Source of the DNA: Escherichia coli
Lineage (GTDB): Bacteria; Pseudomonadota; Gammaproteobacteria; Enterobacterales; Enterobacteriaceae
NCBI RefSeq assembly: GCF_048403405.1
Contig: NZ_CP183129.1
Direction: 5' to 3' (one strand)
DNA: 64,000 bases
Shown here: positions 1,683 to 41,528 of the stretch, piece after piece
Position numbering within the stretch: the stretch's first letter is position 1
Layout of the letters: each line of letters begins with the position of its first letter
Notes under the pieces: generated by a model
The model's input: the letters and a program-made list of their open reading frames with translations, nothing else
What the model was told of the DNA's origin: nothing
Database searches by the model: none
Translations under genes and position numbers: made by a program

Positions 1683-2394
1683 ATAAATATCCTCCGGCAT
1701 AGCCGGAGGTTTTTCAAATGCGCCTGTAAGGCTCTGTTACCAGCCGCGCCCTAACAGGCGCATACGATCTGACATTTGCATTCAACTTCGTTACTTACGG
1801 CCCGTAAACGGGCTGCCCGGATAGGGAATCGATAACTGCTCCCCCATTTTATCCTCTTCAAGCTGGTGCTTTATGTAGTCCTGTATCTTCGCCGTGTTCT
1901 TACCCACCGTATCGACATAGTACCCTCGGCACCAGAACTCCCTGTTTCTGTATTTGAATTTCAAATCCCCAAACTGCTCGTAAAGCATCAGACTGCTTTT
2001 CCCTTTCAGATATCCCATAAAGCCGGATACGCTCATTTTGGGTGGGATTTCCACAAGCATATGGATATGATCTGCGCAGCACTCTGCTTCCAGAATCCGT
2101 ACGCTTTTCCACTCACACAGCTTTCTCAAAATACTGCCTATCGCCCTACGCTTCTCTCCGTAAAACGCCAGTCTTCGGTATTTCGGCGCAAAAACTATGT
2201 GATATTTACAGTTCCAGCGGGTGTGCGCTAAGCTCTTTTCGTCCCCCATTGGGACCCCCTTTTGATTTCTTGTTTGACACTTGCAGTTGCCAGACCGCAA
2301 GGTGTTTTAACAAATCAAAAGGGGTTTTAATAACTGGCTCAAAGCTGAAAGCTTTCCGGAACCCCCAGCCTAGCTGGGGGTTTTCTGTGCACAA
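1680..2394 (-). mobile_element. IS200-like insertion sequence (IS200/IS605 family, tnpA only), copy A; ends +/-3 bp
   Basis: About 715 bp nearly identical to the reverse complement of 40814..41528; contains a single Y1 transposase gene; conserved terminal hairpin cctccggcatagccggagg. Confidence 0.85.
1791..2249 (-). CDS. tnpA: IS200/IS605 family Y1 (HUH) transposase TnpA
   Basis: 152 aa from MGDEKSLAHTRWNCKYHIVFAPKYRR; HUH motif HIHMLV; within ORF 1791..2300. Confidence 0.9.
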   Translation of the reverse strand: MGDEKSLAHTRWNCKYHIVFAPKYRRLAFYGEKRRAIGSILRKLCEWKSVRILEAECCADHIHMLVEIPPKMSVSGFMGYLKGKSSLMLYEQFGDLKFKYRNREFWCRGYYVDTVGKNTAKIQDYIKHQLEEDKMGEQLSIPYPGSPFTGRK

Positions 2395-3987: not shown

Positions 3988-6900
3988 TTACGCCTTCTCA
4001 ATGTTGACTAAGAACGCTTTATATTCCGGCGTTTGCGAGTTTGCATCACCGACATTCGGCGTCAGAGTGTTAGCGATATAACCTTTACGCGCGACACCCT
4101 CAAAGCCCCAGTGGATTGGAATACCCACCGTTTCAACCTGCTGACCGTTTACATTCAGCGGCTTCAGACGGCGCGTTACCACAGCCACCGCGCGGATAAA
4201 GCCACGCTTGCTGGATACGGTGACACGGTCGCCATTGGCGATGCCTTTCGCCGCCGCCAGCGTTTCGCTGATTTCCACAAACTGTTCCGGCTGAGCAATG
4301 GCGTTGAGCAATGCATGCTTAGTCCAGGTGTGGAAGTGCTCGGTCAGACGATAGGTCGTACCCACATACGGGAACTGCTCTTTTTTACCCATCCGCAGCG
4401 CGTCTTGTTCATACAGACGAACGACCGGGTTAGACACCACGTTCGGATGCAGCGGGTTAGTGCCCAGCGGCGTTTCAATTGGCTCGTAGTGTTCCGGGAA
4501 CGGACCTTCCGCCATTTTGTTGATGGCAAACAGGCGTCCCATCCCTTCCGGCTGCATGATAAACGGTCCGGTTAGTGTACCTGGCGCGGCATTGCCGAAG
4601 TCCGGAATATCGTTACCCGTCCACTTGCTGCCGTTCCACTGGATCAGCATCCGTTTCGGATCCCACGGTTTACCGTTGATATCCGCCGAAGCACGGTTGT
4701 AGAGTACGCGACGGTTGAGCGGCCACGCCCAGGCCCATCCCAGCGTATTCCCCAGACCGGACGGGTCGGAGTTATCGCGGTTAGCCATCTGGTTGCCCTG
4801 CTCTGTCCAGCTACCGGTGTAGATCCAGCAAGAAGATGCGGTTGTACCGTCATCACGCAGATGCGCAAAGCTACTCAGCAACTGACCTTTCTTCGCAATC
4901 AGCACGCCATTGGCATCATAGAGATCTTCCAGCGCGTAGCCGTTGTTCTCTTTAGCTACTTCGTCAGATTGCGGTTCGTGCGGCTGCTTGTAGTTCCAGC
5001 TCATCTTCATCAGCGGTTCTACGCCTTTACCACCTTCGGCCTGGTACAGCTCGCGCAGATGATGGTAGATACCCGCCAGAATTTCGCCGTCGTTACGCGC
5101 TTCGCCCGGCGCGTCCTGACCTTTCCAGTGCCACTGCAACCAGCGACCGGAGTTAGCAATAGAACCATCTTCCTCAGCAAAGCAGGTCGAAGGCAGACGG
5201 AATACTTCAGTCTGAATAGACGCAGGATCGACATCGTTCGACTCGCCGTGGTTCTGCCAGAAGGTAGAAGTTTCAGTCACCAGCGGATCGATAACCACCA
5301 TATACTTCAGCTTGCTCAGGCAGCTTACCACTTTGTTTTTGTCCGGGAAGGACGCAACCGGGTTAAAGCCCTGGCAGAAATAACCGGTGACTTTGCCTTC
5401 ATCCATCATGTTGAAATACTTGATGACGTCGTAGGTCTGGTCCCACTTGGGCAGCCAGTCGTAGCCCCAGTTGTTCTCTTTCTGCGCAGCATCGCCGTAG
5501 AAAGATTTCATCAGGCTAACGAAGAACTTCGGATAGTTGCTCCAGTAGTTCACCTGATCAGCCAGCGTCGCTTTCGGCGTGTTCGCTTCCAGATACGACT
5601 GCAAATCAACCTGTTTTTCTGACGGCAGCGTCAGATAACCCGGCAGGCTGGTAGAGAGCAGGCCTAAGTCGGTCAGCCCCTGAATGTTGGAGTGACCACG
5701 CAATGCGTTCACGCCGCCACCGGCCATACCCATGTTACCGAGCAGTAACTGGATCATCGCCATAGTACGGATGTTCTGCGCACCCACGGTGTGCTGCGTC
5801 CAGCCCAGCGCGTAAAGGAAGGTGGTTGTGCGATCCGGTGCGCTGGTGGAGGCCAGCACTTCACACACTTTCAGGAAGTCGGCTTTTGGCGTACCACAGA
5901 TGTTTTCTACTACGTCCGGCGTGTAGCGGGAAACGTGCTCTTTCAGCAAGTTCCACACACAGCGCGGATGAGTCAGTGTTTCATCGCGTTTCGCATAGCC
6001 GTTTTCATCGAACTGATAGTTCCAGGACGATTTATCGTATTGACGTTTTTCAGCGTCGTAGCCGCTGAACAGACCGTCTTCGAAAGCAAAATCATCACGC
6101 ACCAGCAGACTGGCGTTGGTGTAATGCTTAACGTATTCGGCGTTGATTTTGTTGTTTTCGATCAGGTAGCGCAAAACGCCAGACAGGAACGTAATGTCCG
6201 TACCGGAACGAATAGGTGCGTAAATATCCGCTACAGAAGCGGTACGCGTAAAACGGGGATCGACAACGATCAAGGTTGCATCGTTGTTGTTTTTCGCTTC
6301 CATCGCCCAGCGGAAACCGACGGGATGCGCTTCAGCAGCGTTACCGCCCATCACCATTACGACGTTAGCGTTTTTGATATCCACCCAGTGGTTGGTCATC
6401 GCACCGCGACCAAATGTTGGAGCAAGACTTGCTACCGTTGGTCCGTGTCAGACGCGCGCCTGGTTGTCTACCGCCAGCATCCCGAGGGAGCGGGCAAATT
6501 TCTGGGTCAGCATCCCGGTTTCGTTGCTGGCACCGGAGGCACACAGCATACCGGTAGAAAGCCAACGGTTTACCGTTACGCCCTGCTCGTTCTTTTCAAT
6601 AAAGTTAGCGTCACGGTCAGCTTTCATCAGCTTCGCAATACGGGAGAATGCTTCATCCCAGCTAATGCGCTGCCATTTGTCAGAACCTGGCGCACGATAT
6701 TCCGGGTAGCGCAGACGGTTTTCGCTGTTGACGTAATCCAGCAAACCGGCCCCTTTCGGGCACAGCGCACCACGGCTTACCGGATGATCCGGGTCACCTT
6801 CAATGTGATAAATCGCTTCTCTGGCGTTTTTCGCGCCATCACCCAGGCTATACATCAATAGCCCGCAACCTACGGAACAGTATGTGCAGGTGTTACGGAT

Positions 6901-21769: not shown

Positions 21770-22615
21770 TTATTTTCCCGCCTCCGGGTGCGTATCAAAC
21801 GCCGCCATCACCAACGCTAACTCATCCACAGTAAAGCCATGTTTCACATCATCCACGCCCAGACCAAACTGTTCTTGCATCACAGCATATAACGACGCCA
21901 CATCCGCTAGATTTCGCTGTTCCACCGCGTGCCCATTTTCATAATGGGTAAAATGAAAATTGGTCAGTGTCAGCTTGCCGCCGTCCGGCAAATGGCGGCA
22001 CATCAGCAAATGATGGCGAAAATGCGACTGCGGCCAGTGTGCAGACCAGAAATTGCCCATTACATAATCGCTTTGTTGCTGCTCGCAGAGATCAAAACGG
22101 TACATCGACTGCCAGTGCTGATGATGATTAAACTGCAACACCCAATCATCACCCTCCTGTAACAACCGATACTCTCCGTGTGGCGTGAACTGCACGAGAT
22201 CGGGAACTAACCGAATCGGCGCGGTTAGCGTCTGTCCACCGAAACCGACATCAGCAATCCATTTTTCCCCTTCCAGTTCCACCAACAGCAAACGATGGGT
22301 GCGCGGCGGTAATGCTGGCGGATTTGATAACACTACGCGCCCTAACAAGCTGCGAACGTTAAACCCCAGCTCGCGTAACACCCGCTCAAACACGCCATTC
22401 TGCTCAAAACAGTAACCGCCACGACGGGCTGTCACCAGTTTCTCTTCCAGCGATTGATCATCAAGCTGTATTTCCCTTGGCAGCAAAACGTCGAGGTTTT
22501 CAAATGGAATGGTGCAATTGTGTTTCAGGTGCAATGCACGCAGCGTATCAATATTGGCCGCAGCAGCTCCCAACCAGTTAATACGGGCAAAATAGTGATT
22601 CAGAATGGGCGTCAT
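21770..22615 (-). CDS. nhoA: Arylamine N-acetyltransferase / N-hydroxyarylamine O-acetyltransferase
   Basis: 281 aa; NAT family with catalytic Cys context GGYCFEQNG. Confidence 0.93.
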   Translation of the reverse strand: MTPILNHYFARINWLGAAAANIDTLRALHLKHNCTIPFENLDVLLPREIQLDDQSLEEKLVTARRGGYCFEQNGVFERVLRELGFNVRSLLGRVVLSNPPALPPRTHRLLLVELEGEKWIADVGFGGQTLTAPIRLVPDLVQFTPHGEYRLLQEGDDWVLQFNHHQHWQSMYRFDLCEQQQSDYVMGNFWSAHWPQSHFRHHLLMCRHLPDGGKLTLTNFHFTHYENGHAVEQRNLADVASLYAVMQEQFGLGVDDVKHGFTVDELALVMAAFDTHPEAGK

Positions 22616-22789
22616 CAGGCGTTTCCCTTAGTGGTTTTCTCAACTTATAACCTGGAATAGACGCTGCACCGGCTATTTTGTGCGATCGCGGACATGCATC
22701 ACGTTCGCAAATCGCCAATCCCGTTAATTTCGTTACTTATTGCGTTACGAGCTACGCTTTTAAAACACCCTTCATAGCGAGGCGATACC

Positions 22790-23359
22790 GTGAGCCGATT
22801 CATCCCTGTCGAATTACACCATGCCAGCCGTCTGTTAAATCATGGCCCAACTGTCTTGATCACCAGTTTCGATGAGCAATCCCAGCGGCGTAACATTATG
22901 GCAGCCGCCTGGTCAATGCCGGTGGAGTTTGAACCGCCACGCGTGGCGATTGTGGTAGATAAATCGACATGGACCAGGGAGTTGATTGAACGTAATGGTA
23001 AGTTTGGCATCGTTATCCCGGGTGTTGCAGCAACTAACTGGACGTGGGCGGTGGGAAGTGTGTCGGGGCGTGATGAAGATAAGTTTAATTGCTATGGTAT
23101 TCCGGTTGTGAAAGGTCCGGTGCTTGGTTTGCCGCTGGTCGAGGAAAAATGTCTGGCGTGGATGGAGTGTCGCCTGCTACCTGCAACTTCCGCGCAAGAA
23201 AAATACGATACGCTATTTGGCGAAGTGGTATCTGCAGCGGCAGACGCACGAGTATTTGTCGAAGGCCGCTGGCAGTTTGATGATGACAAACTCAATACGT
23301 TGCATCATTTAGGTGCTGGCACGTTTGTTACCAGCGGCCAGCGTGTTACGGCAGGTTAA
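22790..23359 (+). CDS. yddH: Flavin reductase-like (FMN-binding split-barrel) protein
   Basis: 189 aa, GTG start; recognised as YddH. Confidence 0.85.
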   Translation: MSRFIPVELHHASRLLNHGPTVLITSFDEQSQRRNIMAAAWSMPVEFEPPRVAIVVDKSTWTRELIERNGKFGIVIPGVAATNWTWAVGSVSGRDEDKFNCYGIPVVKGPVLGLPLVEEKCLAWMECRLLPATSAQEKYDTLFGEVVSAAADARVFVEGRWQFDDDKLNTLHHLGAGTFVTSGQRVTAG

Positions 23360-23362
23360 GCA

Positions 23363-23590
23363 TTACATGCTGTAACCGGGTTTCTTTATCAAAGCCTCCA
23401 TTTGGGGCTCGATTTCGGCATCCCAGATAGCTTGCCAAGATTCTGGTTGAATCTGCTGTAGAGAAATGCTTATCGAGCTATCTTTACTGTTCAGATGGCG
23501 AATAATAACGTCGGTAATATCTGCAGCGAGTGCTGCTTTTTGTTGTTCGTCCAGTTCACGCGGAAAACATTTAATGTCTATGTGCGGCAT
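23363..23590 (-). CDS. pptA: Tautomerase (4-oxalocrotonate tautomerase family)
   Basis: 75 aa from [18 protein letters not shown] (N-terminal Pro after Met removal) within ORF 23363..23629. Confidence 0.88.
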
Positions 23591-23895
23591 GATTGTGCTC
23601 CTTTTGAAAGATGTCAGTAAAATTAACACACGTTGTGAATGTCGTGTGTCCGGTAATGCGTTTTTACGGCAATAATGCCTACTTGAAATTGTACATATTT
23701 GTACTACACACTTTTAAATAAAGCGCCAATGAAAACGTTAACTTGCAGAATATATTCTTCGCCAACATGCCATTAAGAAAACATCAAGTTCCCGGCTTGC
23801 CAATTGGTTAACGCCCATTATAGTTATTCTTGCCCTCACTAAAAATTTTCATCCGTAATTACCCCCAATAAAAATCCATTCTGGAGACGCTTAAG

Positions 23896-25872
23896 ATGCA
23901 GCTTAATCATATCGTTAAAAGTCTGCTAATAACGGGATTATTCACCACCAGTTCTTTACCTCTCCTCGCGGCGGAAGCTCCTAAAGACGCCACCGCAGCC
24001 ACGCAACAAGCAAACAATTTACTCTACAACCAGTTGCCGTTTGCCGATAACACTGACTTTACTGATGCCCATAAAGGTTTTATTGCCCCTATCCCTCAAG
24101 ACGTGATTAAGGGCGAACAAGGGAATGTTATCTGGGATCCACAACATTACGCTTTTATCAAAGAAGGCGATAAAGCCCCTGATACGGTGAATCCGAGTTT
24201 ATGGCGTCAGGCGCAACTGATAAATATCAGCGGGTTATTCGAAGTAACTGAAGGTGTCTATCAGATTCGCAATCTCGATCTATCAAATATGACCATCATT
24301 GAAGGCAAAGAGGGTATTACCGTCGTTGATCCCCTTGTTTCAGCAGAAACAGCCAAAGTGGGTATGGATCTCTATTACAAAAATCGCGGCAAAAAACCGG
24401 TAGTGGCGGTTATCTATACACACAGTCATGTCGATCACTACGGTGGTGTTCGTGGCGTAATTGATGAAGCTGACGTTAAATCAGGCAAAGTTAAAATCTA
24501 TGCGCCAGCCGGATTTTTGGAGGAAGCCGTTTCCGAAAACATCATGGCTGGCAATGTTATGAGCCGACGAGCCAGTTATATGTATGGCAACTTATTGAAA
24601 CCTGATGTTAAAGGCCAGGTGGGGGCTGGACTGGGAACGACTACTTCAGCAGGAACAGTCACGTTGATTGCTCCTACTAACTACATCACCAAAACCGGAC
24701 AAAAAGAAACTATTGACGGGTTGACTTATGATTTCCTGATGGCGCCAGGTTCTGAAGCGCCTTCTGAAATGCTGTGGTTTATTGAAGAAAAGAAACTGAT
24801 CGAAACCGCTGAAGATGTCACGCACACCCTTCATAACACCTATTCGCTGCGTGGGGCTAAAATTCGCCAACCGCTGCCGTGGTCAAAATATATTAATGAA
24901 GCTCTCAATTTGTGGGGTGATAAAGCCGAGATTATTCTCGCTCAACATCACTGGCCAACCTGGGGCAACGATAACGTGGTCAAACTGCTTAAAAGCCAGC
25001 GTGATTTGTATCGTTACATCAATGATCAAACTCTGCGCATGGCTAATCAAGGGATGACCCGTGATGAAATTGCCGCAAACTTTAAACTGCCCTCTTCACT
25101 GGCTAACACCTGGGCGAATCGCGGCTATTACGGTTCGGTAAGTCATGACGTGAAAGCAACTTACGTGCTTTATCTCGGCTGGTTTGATGGTAACCCCGCG
25201 ACGCTTGATGAACTGCCGCCAGAAGAAGGCGCAAAAAAATTCGTCGAGTATATGGGCGGTGCTGATGCCATTTTACAGAAAGCCAAACAGGATTATGACC
25301 AGGGTAATTTCCGCTGGGTTGCCCAAGTTGTTAGTAAGGTGGTGTTTGCCGATCCAAACAACCAGGCAGCGAGAGATCTGGAAGCTGATGCGCTTGAGCA
25401 GTTAGGCTATCAGGCTGAATCTGGGCCGTGGCGTAATTTCTATCTCACTGGTGCACAGGAATTGCGTAATGGCGTACAAAAATTACCAACACCAAATACT
25501 GCCAGCCCAGACACCGTGCGTGCGATGACGCCGGAGATGTTCTTTGATTATCTTGCCGTCCATATTAATGGTGAGAAAGCGGCAGATGCCAAAACCGTGT
25601 TGAATTTCGATTTTGGTGAAGATGGCGGCACCTATAAAGTGGAGCTTGAAAATGGTGTTCTCAATCATACCGCTGGTGTAGAGGCTTCGGATGCTGATGC
25701 CACTATCACTCTGTCTCGTGATGTATTGAACAAAATTGTACTGAAAGAAGAGACGCTGAAAGAAGCCACGGCCAAAGGAGATGTCAAAATTACTGGCAAT
25801 GAGGAAAAACTCAACGAGCTGTTAGGTTATATGGATAATTTTGAATTTTGGTTCAATATAGTGACACCATAA
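23896..25872 (+). CDS. Periplasmic alkyl/aryl-sulfatase-like protein (metallo-beta-lactamase fold, SdsA1/YjcS family)
   Basis: 658 aa; signal peptide MQLNHIVKSLLITGLFTTSSLPLLAA; MBL motif YTHSHVDHYGG; C-terminal SCP2-like region; not at this position in K-12 as I recall it. Confidence 0.8.
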   Translation: MQLNHIVKSLLITGLFTTSSLPLLAAEAPKDATAATQQANNLLYNQLPFADNTDFTDAHKGFIAPIPQDVIKGEQGNVIWDPQHYAFIKEGDKAPDTVNPSLWRQAQLINISGLFEVTEGVYQIRNLDLSNMTIIEGKEGITVVDPLVSAETAKVGMDLYYKNRGKKPVVAVIYTHSHVDHYGGVRGVIDEADVKSGKVKIYAPAGFLEEAVSENIMAGNVMSRRASYMYGNLLKPDVKGQVGAGLGTTTSAGTVTLIAPTNYITKTGQKETIDGLTYDFLMAPGSEAPSEMLWFIEEKKLIETAEDVTHTLHNTYSLRGAKIRQPLPWSKYINEALNLWGDKAEIILAQHHWPTWGNDNVVKLLKSQRDLYRYINDQTLRMANQGMTRDEIAANFKLPSSLANTWANRGYYGSVSHDVKATYVLYLGWFDGNPATLDELPPEEGAKKFVEYMGGADAILQKAKQDYDQGNFRWVAQVVSKVVFADPNNQAARDLEADALEQLGYQAESGPWRNFYLTGAQELRNGVQKLPTPNTASPDTVRAMTPEMFFDYLAVHINGEKAADAKTVLNFDFGEDGGTYKVELENGVLNHTAGVEASDADATITLSRDVLNKIVLKEETLKEATAKGDVKITGNEEKLNELLGYMDNFEFWFNIVTP

Positions 25873-25886
25873 ATTTACTGCATACC

Positions 25887-25909
25887 GGGCAGGTATCCTG
25901 CCCTTTTTT
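25887..25909 (+). terminator. Rho-independent terminator after the sulfatase gene
   Basis: gggcagg-tatc-ctgccc followed by TTTTTT, 15 nt after stop. Confidence 0.8.
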
Positions 25910-25918
25910 GGTTAAAAA

Positions 25919-27016
25919 ATGGCTGAACGAAGAAAAACGCATCACTCATGGAAAACCCGCCGCGATATGGTTATTCGCGGCATGACGATTAGTTTGCCAT
26001 GGTTTGCTTTTATCAATGTCAGTTTTGCATTGATAATTTTGCTGCGCCGTGTTCTGTTTAATGACCTTACTCCACCCTGGTTAAATGAAAAAAGCCTTAT
26101 ACATTCTATTGATATATCTGCAACGGGTATTCTGCTGATTTGCAGTGGTTTACTACTCATCCCTCGGCAAAAAACATTACCTATCCAGGTGCTATTAGTT
26201 GCCCTGAGCCTGCTATGGTCATGGTGTAGTTATCACTTTATTGCGTACTGGACGCTGCAGTTTGCTTATCCACTATGTGTATTATTAATGCTTAGTGGCG
26301 TTGTCGCACTTTATTTCCATACCCCATCATTGCTCGCATTTGTCATTCCCTTATGGTTCACCACTCCAATAGCGAGTCTTATGCTTAATCAACAGATCAA
26401 TATTCATTTTGCTGTTGTATGGTGTATTTTTTCACTGGCGCTATATGGTGGGCGACTCATTTTGTTACGTTGGTTTGAAGAAGCATGGGTACAAAACAGT
26501 TATAACAACCAGTTAATTAATCGCCTTGATGCATTAGCACATCGTGATCCTTTAACTGGGATAGCAAACCGACGTGCAATGAACAGTATCTTACACGACG
26601 CGATGGATAACGGCGGGTCATTTGCTCTTATTATGCTGGATGTCGATTTTTTTAAACGTTACAACGACACTTACGGGCATCCTGCTGGGGATCGTTGTCT
26701 AATACAAGTTGCCGACGCTCTACAGCGTTCAACTCGCCAGTCGGAGGATGTTGTTGTCCGTTATGGTGGCGAAGAGTTTGCCATCATACTTTTTAATGCA
26801 ACATTGCCGGAAGCAGAGACGGTAGCAGCCAGAGTGAAGCAAGAACTTAAACTGGCAGCTATCCCACATCAGGCATCTGCTGTTAATGCATTTGTTACGG
26901 TTAGTCAGGGGATTACCTGTTCTGCTCCCGCAAAAACGGCTGAACAAATTATTTCAGATGCCGACGCTGCGTTATACCGGGCGAAAGAAAGTGGGCGAAA
27001 TCGATGGGCTTTATAA
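25919..27016 (+). CDS. Membrane-anchored GGDEF diguanylate cyclase (multi-TM N-terminal sensor-like domain)
   Basis: 365 aa; about 6 predicted TM helices then GGDEF domain with RYGGEEF active-site motif and D-x-LTG; start codon uncertain (ATG at 25919 lies 10 nt after a terminator U-tract with no SD). Confidence 0.8.
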   Translation: MAERRKTHHSWKTRRDMVIRGMTISLPWFAFINVSFALIILLRRVLFNDLTPPWLNEKSLIHSIDISATGILLICSGLLLIPRQKTLPIQVLLVALSLLWSWCSYHFIAYWTLQFAYPLCVLLMLSGVVALYFHTPSLLAFVIPLWFTTPIASLMLNQQINIHFAVVWCIFSLALYGGRLILLRWFEEAWVQNSYNNQLINRLDALAHRDPLTGIANRRAMNSILHDAMDNGGSFALIMLDVDFFKRYNDTYGHPAGDRCLIQVADALQRSTRQSEDVVVRYGGEEFAIILFNATLPEAETVAARVKQELKLAAIPHQASAVNAFVTVSQGITCSAPAKTAEQIISDADAALYRAKESGRNRWAL

Positions 27017-27089
27017 GCATTAGGGGACTGGACAGATTACGTCTCTCCTCGCTTAACAAGGGCTGACGGAGGGTAATAATTGTCTATAG

Positions 27090-27641
27090 CTATCTTCTTA
27101 GCGATGTCTTTCTGGTATCACATTGGATCGGTGCAATTATTTTTCCTTTAATACCCATTATGTTAAGAAATTCAGAAACAGCTGTAATCTCATTGTTTTT
27201 TTCATTCGTCTTGATCTTACAAGGAATCTGACTGTGCATTATTGAGAACACACTAATAACGTGAATCGCTCCCTTGCGACGACTCTTGTCATAAGAGTAC
27301 CGGAGCGTTTTTCCATCAATTGCAATGACGTCTTTATCATCTGAAGAATGGCAGTCAAGCATCCAGTTAATAAAGCACTCATGAAATTTTTCAGGACTGA
27401 TACAGGATACAACTCTGGCAATGGTATCGTGAACAGGAATACCATTATCAAAATCACCATATTGCTTCAAAAAATCGAGATGTGTTTCCCCAAAATCCTC
27501 TATATCTTCCCAGCCTTCTGCACCCGAAATAACGGCACAAATAGTCAACAGTAGAATATCCGATAATTTATGTTCCACTTTCCAGGCTTGTCTGTAATCG
27601 GGGATAATAGAAATATGTCCCATCAATTTTTTAAGTTCCAT
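27090..27641 (-). pseudogene. ISAs1-family (H-repeat, YhhI/YdcC-like) transposase, 3'-truncated fragment
   Basis: N-terminal about 166 aa match the H-rpt protein ([12 protein letters not shown]...[11 protein letters not shown]...IDGKTLR) then the frame diverges and stops; full-length homologs are about 378 aa. Confidence 0.8.
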
Positions 27642-27789
27642 TTTGTTCTCCTTAATTATGTAAGGAGTATTTGATCATGTATACGCAATAAAAAACAGCT
27701 TCAGGTAATGAGGAATATCTCAATTGTTAAACATAAAATGCGAATTGTCTAGTACAAAAAAGCAGCGTTACGTGATCTTTCCGTGGATC

Positions 27790-27912
27790 GTCAAATTGTT
27801 CGAGAGAAAATACCAACATGATGGATTTTACTGTAAAAGTAATGTCGTAGTTTAAAAACTCATCATCCGGTAAAGCCTTGTGGGGCGTGGGCTTTCATAC
27901 TTTTACCCTGAT
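27790..27912 (-). repeat. ISAs1/H-rpt element upstream end (copy 1 of a conserved roughly 120-bp block)
   Basis: tcaaattgttcgagagaaaataccaacatgatgg...cttgtggggcgtgggctttcat...ccctgat is about 85 percent identical to 34529..34650. Confidence 0.65.
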
Positions 27913-28226
27913 GTCTGCTATACGCCGGACACCCTTTACGTAGCATTCGGAATTCACCCGTAAATTTATCACGGCGGTATCACGAAACCTCCGGTTCTGA
28001 TGCCGCTTAGGACTAACGACACGTCAACACAGGTTCGGGTTTATTCATTTCACTGTATCTCATATAATCTGAGCACTCCCCCTGCGCTCGCTACTATGAC
28101 TCTTTACCACAGCAACCGGGGTTGTTTGGGATCGGCTTTCAACAGCAGATCCCGGTGGCTATTGCAAGTAAGTCTACTTTCCACATCAGTGTTACTGACA
28201 CAGAAAATAATGAGTTATGATCCTTG

Positions 28227-28712
28227 TCATATTTTTAATATAGCCCCATGAGCTATAGGATCAAAACCTTCTAACCATGAGGTGTTTTTATCGAATAATG
28301 CACCTGTTATATTTATATCGCCATATCTATCACATAATAAATTAGCGCCACATAAGTCAGCACCAGAAAAATTTGAATCTTTAACGTCTGCATTGCAAAA
28401 GGTTGAATTAGTTAATATAGCACCCTCAAAGTTTGCACCTATTGACCTTGAATTACTAAAGTCACTTCCAGTGAAATCTGAGTTATTAAGAATAGCGTTC
28501 ATCAGAGCCGCATTGCGAAAGACAGCATTTCTAGTTGATGTATGTTGAATCATTACATTTCTTAAATGGGAATTTTCAAATTTCGCCCCATCAAGACAAT
28601 AACCATTGAGGATGGCACGATGTAGATCCATCCCGCTAAAATCATATCCAGCAAGAGTGGTACTATCTATATCAAGAAATTTATTGGTTATTAAAAACGC
28701 GATTCTTATCAT
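28227..28712 (-). CDS. Pentapeptide-repeat protein; putative cognate immunity protein of the adjacent Rhs toxin
   Basis: 161 aa; tandem A(D/N)(L/F)xx pentapeptides ([11 protein letters not shown]..., [33 protein letters not shown]); start ATG overlaps Rhs stop (ATGA) so translationally coupled; AT-rich. Confidence 0.8.
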
Positions 28713-31700
28713 CTATTCCCCCAATCATCTAACTCCGGAAAAATTTGGCTAAACGGATATAGTGGTGCCGATAATGGACGCGTACCTGGCCGCTCAGGAG
28801 GAAGTTTATCACATAACAGACCCGCAACCATCCTGTGATTACCATTAACAATCACATTCCCATCCATATCAACCGGTGGTGCTCCACTACCATCTTCCAG
28901 CATTTGTACGTAGTGAGCTACTACGGGTACTGAGACTTTTTGTTGTACTGTCAACAAGGGACTGTTGGCCACAACCATCCTGATGTTTTCAGGTGTCGTA
29001 GGTAAACATTTAGTCTTCTCTTGACTAAAGGTATCATCCCACAATTTTGTTAAACCCATCACTGCCTGTTGTCTGTATTTATCCATGGGGTCAGCAATCA
29101 ACCAAGATGGACCTGACTGCTCTATGGAATCTTCTCCGGAGAGACCCAACGGATCTATCTTAGTAGTTGGATTCAATGGATACTGATACAGGTTCCATGC
29201 ACCTCTTAGCCCAATGGGATCCTGGGTGATATACCGCCCCTGCAACGGGTCATAGTACCGGTTGCGGTTATAGTACAGCCCCGACTCCTCATCATACTGC
29301 TGCCCCGGCAGACGGTACGGCTGTTGCAGTTGCTGCGCGCTGGTTTCGCCCAGCAGGTTTCCCCACTCGTCATACTCCCCCTGCCACGCCGTTTCCCCTT
29401 CCGGGCTGATGAGCGCCTGCGGCAGCCCCCGGTGGTCGCAGTGGTAAAGATGAAGTGTCCTCTCCGGGATGTATTCCGCCTCCATCTGGTTTTTCATCTG
29501 TTCCGCCGTCAGCCCGCACTGCTGAAGCCATGCCTCACTCTCCGCACTCACCGCACCCGCGCGCAGTTCCCGCTCCAGCCTCCCCAGCATCACCGACAGC
29601 TCCGCCGGTAGCGTCACCCCCGTGTCCTCCTGCAACACCTCCGCCAGACTCCGGTGCCGCGCCTTCGCCTGTTCACCATTCTCTGTTTCGATTCTGATGA
29701 GCGGCGTGAAGCTCCCCGGCTGGTATACCGTCTGGATACGCGTGGTGCCGGTCTGTACCGTCGTCAGCCTGTCACCGTCCCACCCGTACCAGGTCTCCTC
29801 CGGTTTACGCGACAGCGACATCCACCCCGTCAGGTCACGCTCCCGCCGCCACACCCGTTTCCCCGTCCGGCGGCCCAGCGGGTCATAGAGGTAGCGGCTC
29901 TCCACCTGTGGCTCGCCGTGCTGTATCCGCGTGTAGAACACCAGGCGGTGCTGGCTGTCGTAATGGTAGTGGTGCGTCCGCTCGTCGTGCATCCGTATCA
30001 CCCCTTCCGGGATACGGTCCGTCTTCTCCGCCAGCCTGCCGTATTCATCGTAGCGGTAGACATAGTGCGCATCTTCCGTGATGCGGTTATCCGGCCACGC
30101 CGTGAAGGTGCTGTCCGGGTGCAGTTCCGGGTCCGGCAGCCGGTTTCCTGCCGGGTCCGTCGCATACGGGATATCGATATCCAGGTTCGCCGCCGTGGTG
30201 TGAACGCCCGTCAGTCTTCCCGTGTCGCTGTAACGGTACTTCCGGCTCTCCTGCGGGCCGCTGATGCGCACCAGTTGCCCGTTATCGTTCCACGTATACT
30301 CACGGTCAAGCTGCGGAAGGTTCAGGTGCCTGCTCCGGAGCTGCCCTGTGAGGGTGTACGCCGTGGCCTGTTCGTACCCCGCTGTACTGCCCGCCCCGCC
30401 GAAGCTGCGGGCCGTCTCACGGTGCAGCCGGTCCCGCGTGTACTCGACCAGCGGCGTTCCGCCCAGCTTCATCCCCGCAAGATAACCGCTGCCATACGTC
30501 AGCCACTCCACCGGCGGCAGACCGTCCGGCTCCTGACGGGTCGCCAGCCCCTGTTCGCTGTAGACGTGCCTCGTCTCATGCTCCCACAGCATCTCCCCCG
30601 TCTCCTGGTTCTCCACCGTCTGCCGTTCGCCCGTCAGGCGGCCTTTATCGTCATAGCCGTAGTGGACCGCCACACGGTGGCCTTCGCTCAGGTGGCTGAT
30701 TTCTGTCAGCCAGCCGTGGTCGTCATACTGCCACTGCTCCGCCGGGTCGCCGTTCACCGTCCGGTGCGTGATGCGCCCGGCGTCATCGTAGTACCACTGC
30801 GTGACCTGCCCCTCATCCTCGCTGCGGATGAGCTGCCCTGTGGCGCTGTACCGGTAACGCTGTGTCCTGCCGTCAAAGCCGCGCTGCTCCGTCAGCCTGT
30901 CCACCGGGTCATACCGGAACGTGGACTGGCTGCCGTTCTCGTTGGTCAGCACGGTGATGCGCCCGGCGGCGTCATACTCCATGCTGCGCGTCAGTCCGCC
31001 CTGCGTGGTGCTGACGGCCTTTCCCCACGCATCATACTGTGTCTCACTCCGGCTGCCGTTCGGGGCAATGATAGCGGTGAGGTCGCCTGCGGCGCTGTAC
31101 TCATAACGGGTTTCACGTCCCTGCGCATCCTTCTGACTGACCAGTTGACCACGCGGGTTATAACTGCTGTAAGTGCTGATGCCTTCCTCCCGGTGAACCG
31201 CCGTCCTCTGACCGTACCGGTCGTATTCATACCGCGTCGTGTACCCTGAACAGTCCGTAAATGCCTGAAGCTGACCGTACCGGTTTCGCGTTATTCTCCG
31301 CCTCACCCCGGTTCCGTCTTCCACCGCACAGGGCAGGCCACTGCGGGAAGAATCATAAAACCAGCGCGTAATGTTACCGTTGCGCGAGACCTCTTCCGCC
31401 AGCCTGCCCTGACGGTCATATTTCCGGCTGCGGCGCAGCCCGTCCGGGTACGTCACTGACGTCAGTTGCAACTGGTTGTTGTAACCATACCGTACCGTCC
31501 TGCCGTCCGGCAGTATCACTGAAGTCAGCTTTCCCGACGCCATATGCAGCCGGTACTCCGTCCGCCGTCCCGCCGCATCCGTCTGCGCCTTCAGCCTCCC
31601 CGCCTCATCATACTCGCTGCGGGTGATGCTCCCGTCCCCATACTCCTTCTTCACCACCCGCTTCAGGCCGCCCTCGCCCTCCGTGTACAGCACCTCCCGC

Positions 31701-32920
31701 CGGTTCAGGCTGTCCGTGATGGTCACGCGGTCCTGCCCGTACTCAAAGCGGTAGTCCAGCCCCTCCGGGTTGACCTGCTCCGTCACCCGACCGGTATCAT
31801 CATACCGGTAGCGGCTCTCCGGCCTCCCCGCATAATGGTGCGCCACCATCCGCCCGGCGTGCTCCGCATCATAAGTAAACCCGCGCACCTGCGTCCCGCT
31901 GCGGTCATACACCGCCCGCAGTTCTCCGCTGGCCGTGTACGTGTAGCGCGCCAGCGGCGCAGTCGGCAGTTCATCCGGGTATGCCGGGTCGTGTGTCAGC
32001 CATACCGCCTCCAGCCGGATACCGTTATCGGCACCGTACTCTGTACCGGTGGGCAGCGTGTCGGGGAAAAACTGAGAAGAGGAAACAGAACGGGGACTGG
32101 CCGGAGAAGATAAAGAAGACTCGCGCTGTTTACGGAAGGCTTTCGCCCGCTGCGCCTGTGTGGTCAGCGCCAGATGAAAACGGCGGCCCGCGCCGTCCGT
32201 CACCCCCGTCACCGCGCCCGCCGCTTCCCCCTCTGCCGCCCGGTGGAAGGCCAGCGTCCGCCCGAAGCCGTCCACCACGCCCGTCAGCACCCGGTATGCG
32301 GGCGGCTCCGGCGGCAGCACCTCGTCCGCCTCCGGCACCCGCTCCGGCCAGCCGAGTATCCACCACGGCCCCTGAAGGCTGTTTGTCGCCAGGTACACAT
32401 GCGGGCTTAAGCGGAGACTCTCCGGCAGCACCTGCCAGAGCGCGCTTAGCGGCTGCGAACTGTGCTGCTCCGCCACCCCGCCCCTTGCCAGCCAGAACGA
32501 CTCGCTGCGGCTGTAGCTTATCTCGCCGGGAAACAGCGGCTCAAAGTGAATGCTCCTGCCGCCACTGTCGTTGAGTATCAGTTCCCGCTCATGAACCTGT
32601 AAGCGGATATCGAAGGGCGCTTTCCAGCCGGGACCAAACACCCCCACCGGCGCGGGTGTCCTGGTCCGGTAGCTGCTGTAGGCGCGGGAAAGAATAAACG
32701 GCAACGGGCCGGGCAGCGCAAGATCCGTCTCGCCCGGCAGCACCTTCGCACCCAGTAGCGGGTTCACCGGGTTACCCTTCTGCTCCTCCACCGGGCTGTT
32801 GGGACACACCGAGCAGGCCACTCCCGTCGGCGCACCTATCAGCACCCCCGCTGAACCCTGCACAATATCCAGTCCCTTGCGGGTCATATCGCCCTGTCGC
32901 GCCGCCGGTTTTCCGCTCAT
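28709..32920 (-). CDS. Rhs-family polymorphic toxin (PAAR-containing N-terminus, YD-repeat shell, DPLGL-delimited variable C-terminal toxin tip)
   Basis: 1403 aa; N-terminal [13 protein letters not shown]...[12 protein letters not shown]; many YD repeats ([18 protein letters not shown]...); conserved PxxxxDPLGL just before the last 143 aa; GC-rich core, AT-rich tip. Confidence 0.93.
28712..29140 (-). other. Rhs C-terminal variable toxin domain (last 143 aa), family not recognised
   Basis: Sequence after DPLGL: [10 protein letters not shown]...VVAHYVQM...[17 protein letters not shown]...ELDDWGNR; base composition drops relative to the Rhs core. Confidence 0.6.
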
Positions 32921-32939
32921 GGTTTATTCCTTAAATTAT

Positions 32940-33131
32940 TTATGGTTTTATTCTGAGTGCAATCCATACTGATTCATAACCAGTGAATAAGATTTCCCCG
33001 AATAATCTATATAAATTAGCGAAGTCCTCTTCACTAATTAACCGTAAAATCCCGTACCAATGAAATATAAAAATAACCACCCACACAAATTTATTGCAAA
33101 TATTATTTATTATTGTATATACATCATTCAC
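32940..33131 (-). CDS. Hypothetical small hydrophobic protein immediately upstream of Rhs (may be spurious)
   Basis: 63-aa ORF with GTG start in an AT-rich region; ends 17 nt before the Rhs start; no recognisable domain. Confidence 0.2.
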   Translation of the reverse strand: MNDVYTIINNICNKFVWVVIFIFHWYGILRLISEEDFANLYRLFGEILFTGYESVWIALRIKP

Positions 33132-33341
33132 TGAACGTTCTCAAACTGCATACCTTAGAACCATCAATTAAAGCCACAACAAAAAAAATCGATTACTTTA
33201 TGTCGCATGACAAATATGAATTACATATTAATCAACCTTAAAAACAATCATCTCTTATAATTAACAGCATACCATGAGAAACACAAAATCAATTTACCAT
33301 GCATACCAGGAGCATAATTAACCTCTCACCGCAGGGCGAAA

Positions 33342-34478
33342 TCATGAAGGCCCGCAGCCAGCAAGGATTAGAGAAAGGTATTCATTCTTACGTCCTGCCC
33401 GCTTTTGCTTGCGTTTAATACCCGCTTTAAAGCTATTCTCTGCGGTCAGTAAATTCATCGCGATATGTCGACAAACTGCCAGATTTTCTCCCGCTTCTCC
33501 ACGAACAATCTGGCATTCATCTTCCCGCATCCCCATATCAAGTCGCCAGTGCAGTTGATTTTCTACCGACCAGTGTGCTCGTGTTGCTTCCAGGAGTTCT
33601 TTCGCCGTAAGCGTCACCGAACTTATGTAGTAGCGAAGAATACACTTCTCTGATTTCACCGCTGTTTCTCCTTCCTGTCTGCTCGCCAGCACTATTCCTA
33701 TCGTGCTCAGCTCTGACCATTCATAAGCTAAATCACCCAGAGCGGTTAAATCATGGCTCACAATGCAGCATCGTGTATCTTCCCGTCCATGCCCTTTTTC
33801 CTGCGTGCTGTAACTGTCATACCTCTCACCCAGCCACATTGTCGGCGAGTACCCGTTATCAAACGCCTCCGCTAATTTTCCCTGATTTCCTTTCAGCGCC
33901 AGCAGGTAACCGGCTTTCTTTTTCAGAATTTCACGGGCGATTATATGCTGGCAACCCATTGCATCCAGCGTGACCAGACACCCTTTTAATTCCAGCAACT
34001 GGAGCCGTTCCGGGATCGCCGTTATCTCATTCGATTTTGCCCCTGTTTTCACCTGCCCCAAAACCAGACGATTTTCTGCGCTAAAAGCACTGACCCTATG
34101 GATCACGGCATTACGTTTCGATTTATCGTAAGTACCCCGTAATGACTTACCATCAATCGCCACAACAGAGCCTTCAGACAACGTGTGACAGTCCTTCATC
34201 TACTGGATAAAAAGGGGCTGTAATTGTTTTGCTGAAATCATTCCCATCACTCGGGCAATCGTGTGATGGGAGGGGGTGCCATTTTCAAAATCACCATACA
34301 GGCGTAACCATTCCAGATGCTCCTCACCAAAATCAGCAATTTCTTCCCATCCTTCAGCGCCACCGATAATGGCGGTGATCGTCAGAAAAAGGATATCCGC
34401 CAGGCTGTAACTGGTTTTCCAGGACTGGCGATAATCGTGAATAATTGAAATTTGATCCAAAAGGCTTAGTCCGTTCAT
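33342..34478 (-). pseudogene. ISAs1-family (H-repeat) transposase gene inactivated by a single in-frame amber codon
   Basis: ORFs 34200..34478 (92 aa) and 33342..34199 (285 aa) are in the same frame separated only by TAG at 34200..34202; together 378 codons, the length of an intact H-rpt protein; the stop sits where homologs have Trp (…FINW-MRDCH…). Confidence 0.85.
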
Positions 34479-34528
34479 GGTGTGCTATCCATCAAAAAGA
34501 AAGGATAAGATCACACTGAAATAAGATG

Positions 34529-34650
34529 GTCAAATTGATCGAAAAAAAGATCAACATGATGGGTTTTACGATAAAAGTAATGTCGCGATTTAAAAATTCA
34601 TCATTCACCAAAGTCTTGTGGGGCGCGGGCTTTCATGCTTTTTCCCTGAT
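34529..34650 (-). repeat. ISAs1/H-rpt element upstream end (copy 2)
   Basis: Paired with 27790..27912 (see above). Confidence 0.65.
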
Positions 34651-34888
34651 ACGCTACCGCTCTGCCCTGATAACATGATCTGCACGGCGCTATCATATCG
34701 ACATATTTCTCTACATGCGAAAGGATGTTTTATTTTCGGATTATATTAAATTGATATTTCATATAAAAAACGAGATTACATAAATCATATAAATAATTGT
34801 ACCAACTTTAATTACCATTCATAGCAAACAAATGGATGTCCAGTTAACTACGCCAGTGATTTATTAACATTAATCTCCGGCATTATTG

Positions 34889-35495
34889 TTAAATAATGGC
34901 ATTCCTTTTTAGTATTTCTTGTAACGTTGGTATCGGACATACAGCATCAGCAATCGCACTGATATTCGCGGCATTATCTTGAAACCATTCATGCCCCGGT
35001 CCCCATATGCGCATAACGCAGAGATAAGGGTAGCTGATCGCCAAACGCATAAGGTTCAGCAGTGAGCTACGAATTCAACCAGATATAAAACGATTTTCGA
35101 TATTCAATAACATTCTTCTTTAACTGTTCGGGTGCGTCAGGAGCCCAACGCTCAGGGTAATCGGCGAAAGTGAATGTTGGATAGACATTAGCAACCAGCC
35201 AGACCAATAGCCGTTGAAACTGCTGACGTTCGGCGCGCCCAACCGGTGGCGCAAGGTCCGGGCGACGATCGAGAACCATCAATGCAATCGCCGCTGTCTC
35301 CGTCATAATCTCGTCATTTTCCAGCGCCAGTGTCGGAATCTGACACAACGGGTTCAGGGTTTTCAATAACTCGCGTGAGGTTCCCTCGTGGTCAAAACCA
35401 CTGACATCAACGAACTGATAAGGAATATCAGCCAGTGTTAGCATCAGCTCACTGATTGTAGAGCCCCATCCGGGTACGCCATACACCTTAATCAT
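34889..35495 (-). pseudogene. yncG: Glutathione S-transferase homolog, disrupted (in-frame TAG plus a frameshifting deletion)
   Basis: N-terminal 142 aa intact (MIKVYGVPGWGSTISEL...YIWLNS) then TAG at 35067..35069; the GST C-terminal region (...WGPGHEWFQDNAANISAIADAVC...) continues in another frame; total 607 nt, not a multiple of 3. Confidence 0.75.
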
Positions 35496-35761
35496 ATGCC
35501 CCTCACAATCTTTTAAAGATTAAGTGTAGGACAGTACACAGGTTAACCAGCAAAAGGATTTGTCATTTTTTCGTCAGTTGTATTATTCCCCTTCAGGATT
35601 GTAAGGGGATGTTTTGCATCGTTTATCGATAACGGGTAGGATGCTGCGCCGATAGTTTTATACCCATAAAGAATAATGGTGATAACTATCATCGCCAGGA
35701 TGAATAAACATTGTTCATGGCAACTTATATGACTTTTTCATTAAAGCAATCAGGGAGAGCA

Positions 35762-40813: not shown

Positions 40814-41528
40814 TTGTGCACAGAAAACCCCCAGCTAGGCTGGGGGTTCCGGAAAGCTTTCAGCTTTAAGCCAGTTATTAAAACCCCTTTTGATTTGTTA
40901 AAACACCTTGCGGTCTGGCAACTGCAAGTGTCAAACAAGAAATCAAAAGGGGGTCCCAATGGGGAACGAAAAGAGCTTAGCGCACACCCGATGGAACTGT
41001 AAATATCACATAGTTTTTGCGCCAAAATACCGAAGACAGGTGTTCTACAGAGAGAAGCGTAGAGCAATAGGCAGTATTTTGAGAAAGCTGTGTGAGTGGA
41101 AAAGTGTACGGATTCTGGAAGCTGAATGCTGTGCAGATCATATCCATATGCTTGTGGAGATCCCGCCCAAAATGAGCGTATCCGGCTTTATGGGATATCT
41201 GAAAGGGAAAAGCAGTCTGATGCTTTACGAGCAGTTTGGTGATTTGAAATTCAAATACAGGAACAGGGAGTTCTGGTGCAGAGGGTACTACGTCGATACG
41301 GTGGGTAAGAACACGGCGAAGATACAGGATTACATAAAGCACCAGCTTGAAGAGGATAAAATGGGAGAGCAGTTATCGATTCCCTATCCGGGCAGCCCGT
41401 TTACGGGCCGTAAGTAACGAAGTTGGATGCAAATGTCAGATCGTGTGCGCCTGTTAGGGCGCGGCTGGTAAGAGAGCCTTATAGGCGCATTTGAAAAACC
41501 TCCGGCTATGCCGGAGGATATTTATTTA
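40814..41528 (+). mobile_element. IS200-like insertion sequence, copy B (inverted relative to copy A)
   Basis: Near-identical to the reverse complement of 1680..2394 with a few substitutions; boundaries +/-3 bp. Confidence 0.85.
40959..41417 (+). CDS. tnpA: IS200/IS605 family Y1 transposase TnpA
   Basis: 152 aa from MGNEKSLAHTRWNCKYHIVFAPKYRR; differs from copy A at a few residues (e.g. D3N, LAFYG to QVFYR). Confidence 0.9.
   Translation: MGNEKSLAHTRWNCKYHIVFAPKYRRQVFYREKRRAIGSILRKLCEWKSVRILEAECCADHIHMLVEIPPKMSVSGFMGYLKGKSSLMLYEQFGDLKFKYRNREFWCRGYYVDTVGKNTAKIQDYIKHQLEEDKMGEQLSIPYPGSPFTGRK

Follow-up and report, generated by a model that had tools for sequence, protein, structure and literature searches.

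Probable loss of a resident alkyl sulfatase and MASE5-GGDEF cyclase gene pair beside ISAs1 at the pptA-yncG interval of Escherichia coli

Introduction

This report concerns two neighbouring genes in a 64-kb window, by which we mean the whole stretch of Escherichia coli DNA that was analysed (64,000 nucleotides of contig NZ_CP183129.1, RefSeq assembly GCF_048403405.1) and to whose positions all coordinates refer. The open reading frame (ORF) list places the two on the plus strand between pptA and a transposase fragment of the insertion sequence (IS) ISAs1, also called the H-repeat, and they are predicted to encode a secreted alkyl sulfatase and a membrane-bound diguanylate cyclase. We conclude that the pair is of a known kind, consists of known families and stands at an ancestral locus that has been eroded in most E. 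coli, and that ISAs1 is associated with the loss of the pair and not with its gain. Our full reading, to which we assign a probability of about 0.8, is that these are two independently transcribed, long-resident genes that have mostly been lost via ISAs1-adjacent deletions.

A preliminary description of the same DNA, based on its letters and ORFs, had seen in the pair an accessory module, a small island for signalling and sulfur scavenging that was acquired or rearranged through ISAs1 activity and that ended where the IS had been truncated. The evidence below bears on each part of that proposal.

The gene pair in K-12 and other E. coli

The left neighbour of the pair is the tautomerase gene pptA (23363-23590, minus strand; NCBIfam PRK01271, E = 4e-46, and RefSeq annotation), after which come the sulfatase gene (23896-25872, plus strand) and the cyclase gene (25919-27016, plus strand). 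E. coli strain 4621 is 100% identical to the window, and RefSeq annotates there an 'alkyl/aryl-sulfatase', a 'GGDEF domain-containing protein' and an ISAs1 transposase marked as frameshifted and incomplete, beyond which come a pentapeptide-repeat gene and then an Rhs core gene.

The order in K-12 MG1655 is yncG-yncH-rhsE'-ydcD-yncI'-ydcC-pptA, with an intact ISAs1 (ydcC) directly adjoining pptA and with neither the sulfatase nor the cyclase gene there, as the preliminary description had stated. The insertion boundaries, which it had proposed to define by alignment, were obtained with blastn: window positions 23680-27090 are missing from K-12, the 3' 595 bp of ydcC stand in their place, and the K-12 breakpoint (23679/23680) lies 89 bp upstream of the pptA start. 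The K-12 RhsE region lies in the same chromosomal interval; K-12 and the window share the boundary set by the stop codon of yncG, and in both ISAs1 is oriented alike, facing pptA. They differ in that the intact ydcC of K-12 abuts the region upstream of pptA, while in the window ISAs1 is degraded and both the Rhs core tip and the immunity-like gene are different.

Prevalence was counted among 5,426 complete E. coli genomes, with the pair called present where its 3.45-kb segment was matched at 80% coverage or more. It was found in 438 of them (8%), in one place per genome and always on the chromosome, so that its accessory status, which presence in most E. coli including K-12 would have contradicted, is confirmed. 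Plasmid carriage was considered and rejected, the sole PLSDB 'plasmid' match being a 4.9-Mb record, that is, a mislabelled chromosome.

Two haplotypes carry the pair in E. coli, 98% identical to each other but with different right junctions. The window-type right junction occurs in 343 genomes. The other is typified by strain N32, which has the order pptA-sulfatase-cyclase-yncG-ansP-yncE, with the stop codons of the cyclase gene and yncG adjacent and no IS or Rhs sequence between them; this junction, in which the cyclase gene simply abuts yncG, was found in 87 genomes including SMS-3-5.

The same interval in related species

A scan of one genome per species extended the comparison beyond E. 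coli. E. whittamii has the order narV-yddE-nhoA-yddH-pptA-sulfatase-cyclase, with a sulfatase 98% and a cyclase 93% identical to those of the window. Two GTDB species representatives that are labelled E. coli have the same order: SCPM-O-B-8794, with the cyclase gene directly against yncG, and E69, with a cyclase of 80% identity. It recurs in Escherichia sp. E1V33, where the sulfatase gene is partly deleted. Four divergent Escherichia lineages therefore share the arrangement narZ..yddE-nhoA-yddH-pptA-sulfatase-cyclase-(yncG)-ansP, and the same flanks occur on metagenome contigs whose cyclases are 93% and 77% identical.

Partial versions of the arrangement are found at greater distance. Three Citrobacter species have yddH-cyclase-pptA-yncG-ansP, with a cyclase of 64% identity and no sulfatase gene, and in C. 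sedlakii and C. amalonaticus the interval holds the sulfatase gene and no cyclase gene. In E. albertii, pptA and the sulfatase gene with its terminator are kept and the cyclase gene is lost, with Rhs fragments alongside. We conclude that the sulfatase and cyclase genes are long-resident chromosomal genes of the yddH/pptA-yncG interval in Escherichia and its Citrobacter relatives.

Deletion scars in E. coli lineages lacking the pair

Three classes of deletion were recognised at this place. In 84 E. coli genomes window positions 23645-23965, including 70 nt from the start of the sulfatase gene, are kept and joined to the right end of an intact ISAs1. Strain 2014EL-1345-2 retains 23303-23823 together with a 67-bp fragment from the 3' part of the sulfatase gene (25751-25817), after which an intact ISAs1 follows. 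The K-12 junction, with the ISAs1 right end 89 bp upstream of pptA, is present in 2,375 genomes, and pptA has also been lost in some others. The part that had been given to ISAs1 in rearranging the locus is supported. In all three classes the transposase gene has its 3' end towards pptA and is oriented like the relic in the window, a pattern to be expected if deletions started at one IS end (adjacent deletion) or if IS copies recombined with each other, and we infer that the mechanism was of this kind.

The sequence of events that we propose would begin with the insertion of an Rhs/ISAs1 (H-repeat) block where the cyclase stop codon adjoins yncG. Deletions running from the right end of an ISAs1 copy and varying in extent would later have removed the cyclase and sulfatase genes from most E. 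coli lineages, the K-12 arrangement being the commonest outcome. In the window lineage the adjacent ISAs1 is dead, by frameshift and internal deletion, and the pair has survived beside it.

The ISAs1 relic and the Rhs block

The element next to the cyclase gene is an ISAs1 relic on the minus strand (about 27028-27760) that has both termini. It contains an ORF for the N-terminal part of the transposase (27090-27641, minus strand), and blastn matches 27091-27760 to nt 1-671 of the K-12 ydcC element at 91% identity, which sets the left end at 27760. A 1-nt frameshift lies near 27137-27141, at about codon 167-169 of the transposase gene. The preliminary description was right that the transposase ORF is truncated; position 27141, which it had taken for the junction between module and truncated IS, is the frameshift, and homology to ISAs1 runs on to 27091. 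The joint of an internal deletion of about 530 bp follows at 27090/27091, and beyond it 27028-27090 (63-74 bp) is, by local alignment, a diverged ISAs1 right terminus that shares AGC.AT.GACA...CGTCAG.CCTT...CGTAATCT.G.CC.G with the end of the ydcC element. A global MAFFT alignment against ydcC misplaced this short piece, and local alignment together with the E. whittamii sequence was used instead. The right-end piece occurs at a single place per genome, with no other copy in the E. coli genomes, and the relic ends about 11 bp past the cyclase stop codon.

The relic's internal joint is common to the window, E. whittamii and Escherichia sp. E1V33, and so is a cyclase C-terminus that reads AL-stop, as against EK-stop in N32. 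Because these two features are shared, we consider the relic beside the cyclase gene to be old. E. whittamii has a further internal deletion in the relic and, just beyond it, an intact ISAs1 end.

Compared with N32 by blastn, the window has an extra 7,880 bp (27009-34888). This block contains the ISAs1 relic and a spacer, the genes for the pentapeptide-repeat and Rhs core proteins, a second copy of ISAs1, and AT-rich DNA of about 400 bp. In K-12 the Rhs block begins at the same yncG-stop boundary. Since the pair sits at the same locus in relatives and is free of IS in N32-type strains, it is this 7.9-kb Rhs/ISAs1 block between the cyclase gene and yncG that is the foreign part of the locus.

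Several features of the block may be recorded in their own right. The spacer is an unannotated 466-bp segment (27761-28226) found in 143 of the 5,426 genomes. On its minus strand, 28051-28159 match Rfam RF01999 (group II intron D1-D4-2) with 48 bits, above the gathering score of 36, and represent an orphan 5' piece of such an intron, placed between the relic and the pentapeptide-repeat gene. Downstream of the Rhs core gene (28709-32920, minus strand), and overlapping it by 4 bp, is the pentapeptide-repeat gene (28227-28712, minus strand), whose 161-aa product has Qnr/MfpA-like matches and is a candidate immunity protein, of unusual type, for an Rhs toxin; the C-terminal tip of the Rhs protein (its last ~180 aa) has no Pfam match. 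The second ISAs1 (33342-34478, minus strand) is split by an internal stop into ORFs at 33342-34199 and 34200-34478, so that two defective ISAs1 copies in the same orientation bracket the Rhs gene. Past the block, yncG (34890-35496, minus strand) is a frameshifted pseudogene in the window strain.

The predicted alkyl sulfatase

The product of 23896-25872, at 658 aa, is by its domains and structural matches a type III metallo-β-lactamase (MBL)-fold alkyl sulfatase and an ordinary member of the SdsA1/PSdsA/YjcS family. It begins with a Sec-type signal (MQLNHIVKSLLITGLFTTSSLPLLA, followed by AEAP), carries the zinc motif HSHVDH (HxHxDH) at residue 176, and is matched in Pfam by Lactamase_B (E = 1.1e-16), Alkyl_sulf_dimr (E = 1.3e-62), Alkyl_sulf_C (E = 3.1e-44) and SCP2 (E = 6e-06), all of which support the secreted, sulfatase-like enzyme that had been proposed. 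Over about residues 26-658 it aligns with the solved structures 7TL5, 4NUR, 4PDX, 2YHE (Pisa1) and 2CFU, with bit scores of 1192 for 7TL5, which is named only 'Lactamase_B domain-containing protein', 1036 for PSdsA (4NUR), 702 for E. coli YjcS (4PDX) and 636 for SdsA1 (2CFU). It is like the rest of the family in its MBL, dimerisation and SCP2-like C-terminal parts, its HxHxDH motif and its alignment over the full length; at a locus different from that of YjcS, it is a paralogue of the K-12 protein and not YjcS itself. The ratio of nonsynonymous to synonymous divergence (dN/dS) between species is 0.03-0.08, which indicates purifying selection. From family membership, the enzyme would be exported to the periplasm and would use a binuclear zinc site to cleave primary alkyl sulfate esters into alcohol and sulfate.

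The predicted MASE5-GGDEF cyclase

Counted from the ATG at 25919 the cyclase is 365 aa long, and with the RefSeq start (25967) it has 349 aa. Its sequence shows six hydrophobic stretches, a full-length MASE5 domain (PF17178, E = 7.5e-44, model positions 2-192 of 192) and a complete GGDEF domain (PF00990, E = 1.9e-48, positions 1-161 of 161; also NCBIfam TIGR00254). The A-site is intact, with RYGGEEF at residues 281-287 invariant in 9 orthologs, and the multi-spanning cyclase with a complete active site that had been described is therefore substantiated. With a dN/dS of 0.14-0.21 between species, it too is under purifying selection. The family to which it belongs predicts a six-helix inner-membrane sensor that would make cyclic di-GMP (c-di-GMP) in response to a membrane or periplasmic cue.

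The RxxD motif, or I-site, is found in product-inhibited cyclases and is not required for activity. Here the sequence is RQSEDVVVRYGGEEF, with RQSEDVVVRY before the A-site, the I-site arginine of WspR aligns with Q, and all 9 aligned orthologs read R-[QS]-[SP]-E-D at this place. For these reasons the canonical RxxD five residues upstream of GGDEF is judged absent from the cyclase and from the 9 aligned orthologs, and since it is absent, classical product inhibition is probably missing from this cyclase.

The start of the gene also deserves comment. The in-frame ATG at 25919 adds 16 residues (MAERRKTHHSWKTRRD) ahead of the RefSeq start, and the Escherichia and Citrobacter orthologs have a comparable basic extension, likewise open, in which a W is conserved, so that the RefSeq start (25967) may make the protein too short.

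The cyclase is of a type common among Enterobacteriaceae, and proteins from Enterobacter, Lelliottia, Leclercia, Salmonella and Hafnia are ~50% identical to it. As a lead, it is probably the non-K-12 membrane cyclase that Povolotsky & Hengge (2016) list as 'DgcY' for the pangenome of E. coli; literature searches on DgcY and MASE5, which did not extend to that article, found nothing on this cyclase gene, and the name DgcY is absent among the source names in the protein collection searched. K-12 DgcF (YneF) was rejected as a paralogue, with 28% identity over the GGDEF domain only. MASE5-GGDEF cyclases of other Enterobacteriaceae are like the window protein in domain order, GGEEF active site and membrane anchor; among them are a protein of Enterobacter ludwigii EL-703 that has no MG1655 counterpart (PMC7232144, Table 3) and DGC3134 of Pantoea (PMC8294551, Table 1). 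DgcX of O104:H4 and enteroaggregative E. coli is likewise a membrane-bound GGDEF cyclase that K-12 lacks and that a minority of E. coli carry; it has ~270 N-terminal residues with eight predicted transmembrane helices of the YcdT/YeaI type, keeps an intact RxxD and lies beside lambdoid prophages at attB (PMC4287979). Identity with DgcX was rejected, the window cyclase having MASE5, no RxxD and a place in the pptA-yncG interval.

Transcription of the two genes

Directly past the sulfatase stop codon, at 25887-25911 on the plus strand, is a strong, intrinsic-terminator-like hairpin (GGGCAGG-TAT-CCTGCCC) with a T-run. Every ortholog examined has a GC-rich hairpin and T-run at the same position, and in Lelliottia and Pseudenterobacter its sequence differs. 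Because this conserved terminator separates the genes, a two-gene operon was rejected and the 'module' does not hold as one transcription unit; the sulfatase and cyclase genes are probably transcribed separately, with read-through possible.

The same two genes also occur as neighbours at another locus. Leclercia, Lelliottia and Pseudenterobacter have tynA-sulfatase-cyclase-feaB-feaR, with the pair in the same order, sulfatases 85-88% identical to that of the window and cyclases ~51% identical. Enterobacter cloacae DSM 26481 has tynA'-cyclase-feaB at this site, with a shortened tynA match and no sulfatase gene, which we note as a parallel case of partial loss.

Discussion

The reading that we favour, residence followed by loss, has to be weighed against other histories of the locus. 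That the pair is a small island brought or assembled by ISAs1 transposition, with the IS truncated at the island's edge, we regard as very improbable, and synteny and scar data largely refute it. An ISAs1 remnant about 11 bp from the cyclase stop would suit such an origin, as would the GC content of the pair (0.40-0.48, below the 0.52-0.57 of the nar genes) and its presence in only 8% of genomes, but the same locus is occupied in other Escherichia and partly in Citrobacter, and in 87 E. coli genomes the pair has no IS near it. The IS stands on one side only, no genome has a second copy of the pair, there is no real plasmid match, and the relic retains both of its own termini and so was not cut by the module. 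Lineages that lack the pair, finally, bear deletion scars. Acquisition through ISAs1, as it had been proposed, is not supported.

Some observations also weigh against residence and loss in its simplest form. The K-12-class breakpoint falls in the spacer upstream of pptA, and so this class holds no direct remnant of the pair. The right-terminal piece of the relic is ~65-70% identical to the right end of ydcC, as against 91% for the left part, and because these identities differ the relic and the K-12 ydcC are not simply the same copy and the order of events is uncertain. Synonymous divergence (dS) between the window and N32 is 0.14-0.36 for the flanking genes yddE, nhoA and yddH (20781-23359), 0.08 for the sulfatase gene and 0.01 for the cyclase gene; between the window and E. 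whittamii it is 0.18 for the sulfatase gene and 0.16 for the cyclase gene, with 0.5-0.6 for yddE, nhoA and yddH. Since pair and flanks are discordant, the region is a recombination mosaic whose history was not purely vertical, and in some carrier lineages the pair may have been regained through homologous exchange with other Escherichia. Such exchange could be made the whole explanation, E. coli having lost the pair and the ~8% having regained it via homologous recombination with other Escherichia through the conserved flanks, an account that we consider unlikely. It would agree with the mosaic within E. coli, with a pair dS against E. whittamii about three-fold below that of the flanking genes, and with the AL-stop C-terminus and relic joint common to the window, E. 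whittamii and E1V33. Against it stand the two distinct E. coli haplotypes, with their 98% identity and different right junctions, and the independent E. coli scar classes, which hold remnants at 95% identity and which, together with the haplotypes, indicate inheritance of the pair in several E. coli lineages; the high dS of the flanks may, moreover, reflect unusually divergent flank alleles and not a young pair. A mosaic history in any case does not rescue IS-mediated acquisition, and residence with loss beside ISAs1 remains our reading of the locus.

A separate question is whether the two genes work together. Their naming as a 'sulfur-scavenging/signalling' unit is speculation, although it can be given a more definite form, in which sulfatase and cyclase would be a conserved sensing couple. 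Alcohol freed from alkyl sulfates, or the detergent itself, would be sensed by MASE5, whose signal would then be alkyl sulfates or periplasmic fatty alcohols, and would lead to c-di-GMP and aggregation. The sulfatase gene lies immediately upstream of the MASE5-GGDEF gene at the Escherichia pptA/yncG locus, and the order is the same in three other genera at tynA/feaB despite the ~51% identity of the cyclases. There is also a precedent in P. aeruginosa, in which aggregation is triggered by sodium dodecyl sulfate, depends on SiaD and is linked to c-di-GMP (PMC4768041). Set against this are the conserved terminator between the genes, the occurrence of each gene alone in Citrobacter species, C. sedlakii, C. 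amalonaticus, E. albertii and Enterobacter cloacae, and the fact that adjacency could simply be inherited, and we hold the sensing couple to be quite unlikely. If true, it would link exposure to detergents or sulfated lipids with c-di-GMP and biofilm in a minority of E. coli lineages.

Current understanding is unchanged by these findings. What they alter is the direction of the event, which is corrected to gene loss beside ISAs1/Rhs and not gain; at least three deletion end-points, independent of one another, at this single locus show the H-repeat/ISAs1 eroding neighbouring genes. For c-di-GMP biology, ~8% of E. coli carry one extra, probably active MASE5-type cyclase with no canonical I-site, and its conserved adjacency to an alkyl sulfatase gene suggests a guess at the MASE5 ligand.

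Other features of the window

Two full-length copies of the Hfq-binding small RNA STnc490 lie about 38 kb apart in opposite orientation, at 2259-2382 (minus strand) and 40826-40949 (plus strand). A SECIS_3 element at 6395-6453 (minus strand) is presumably within a formate dehydrogenase gene.

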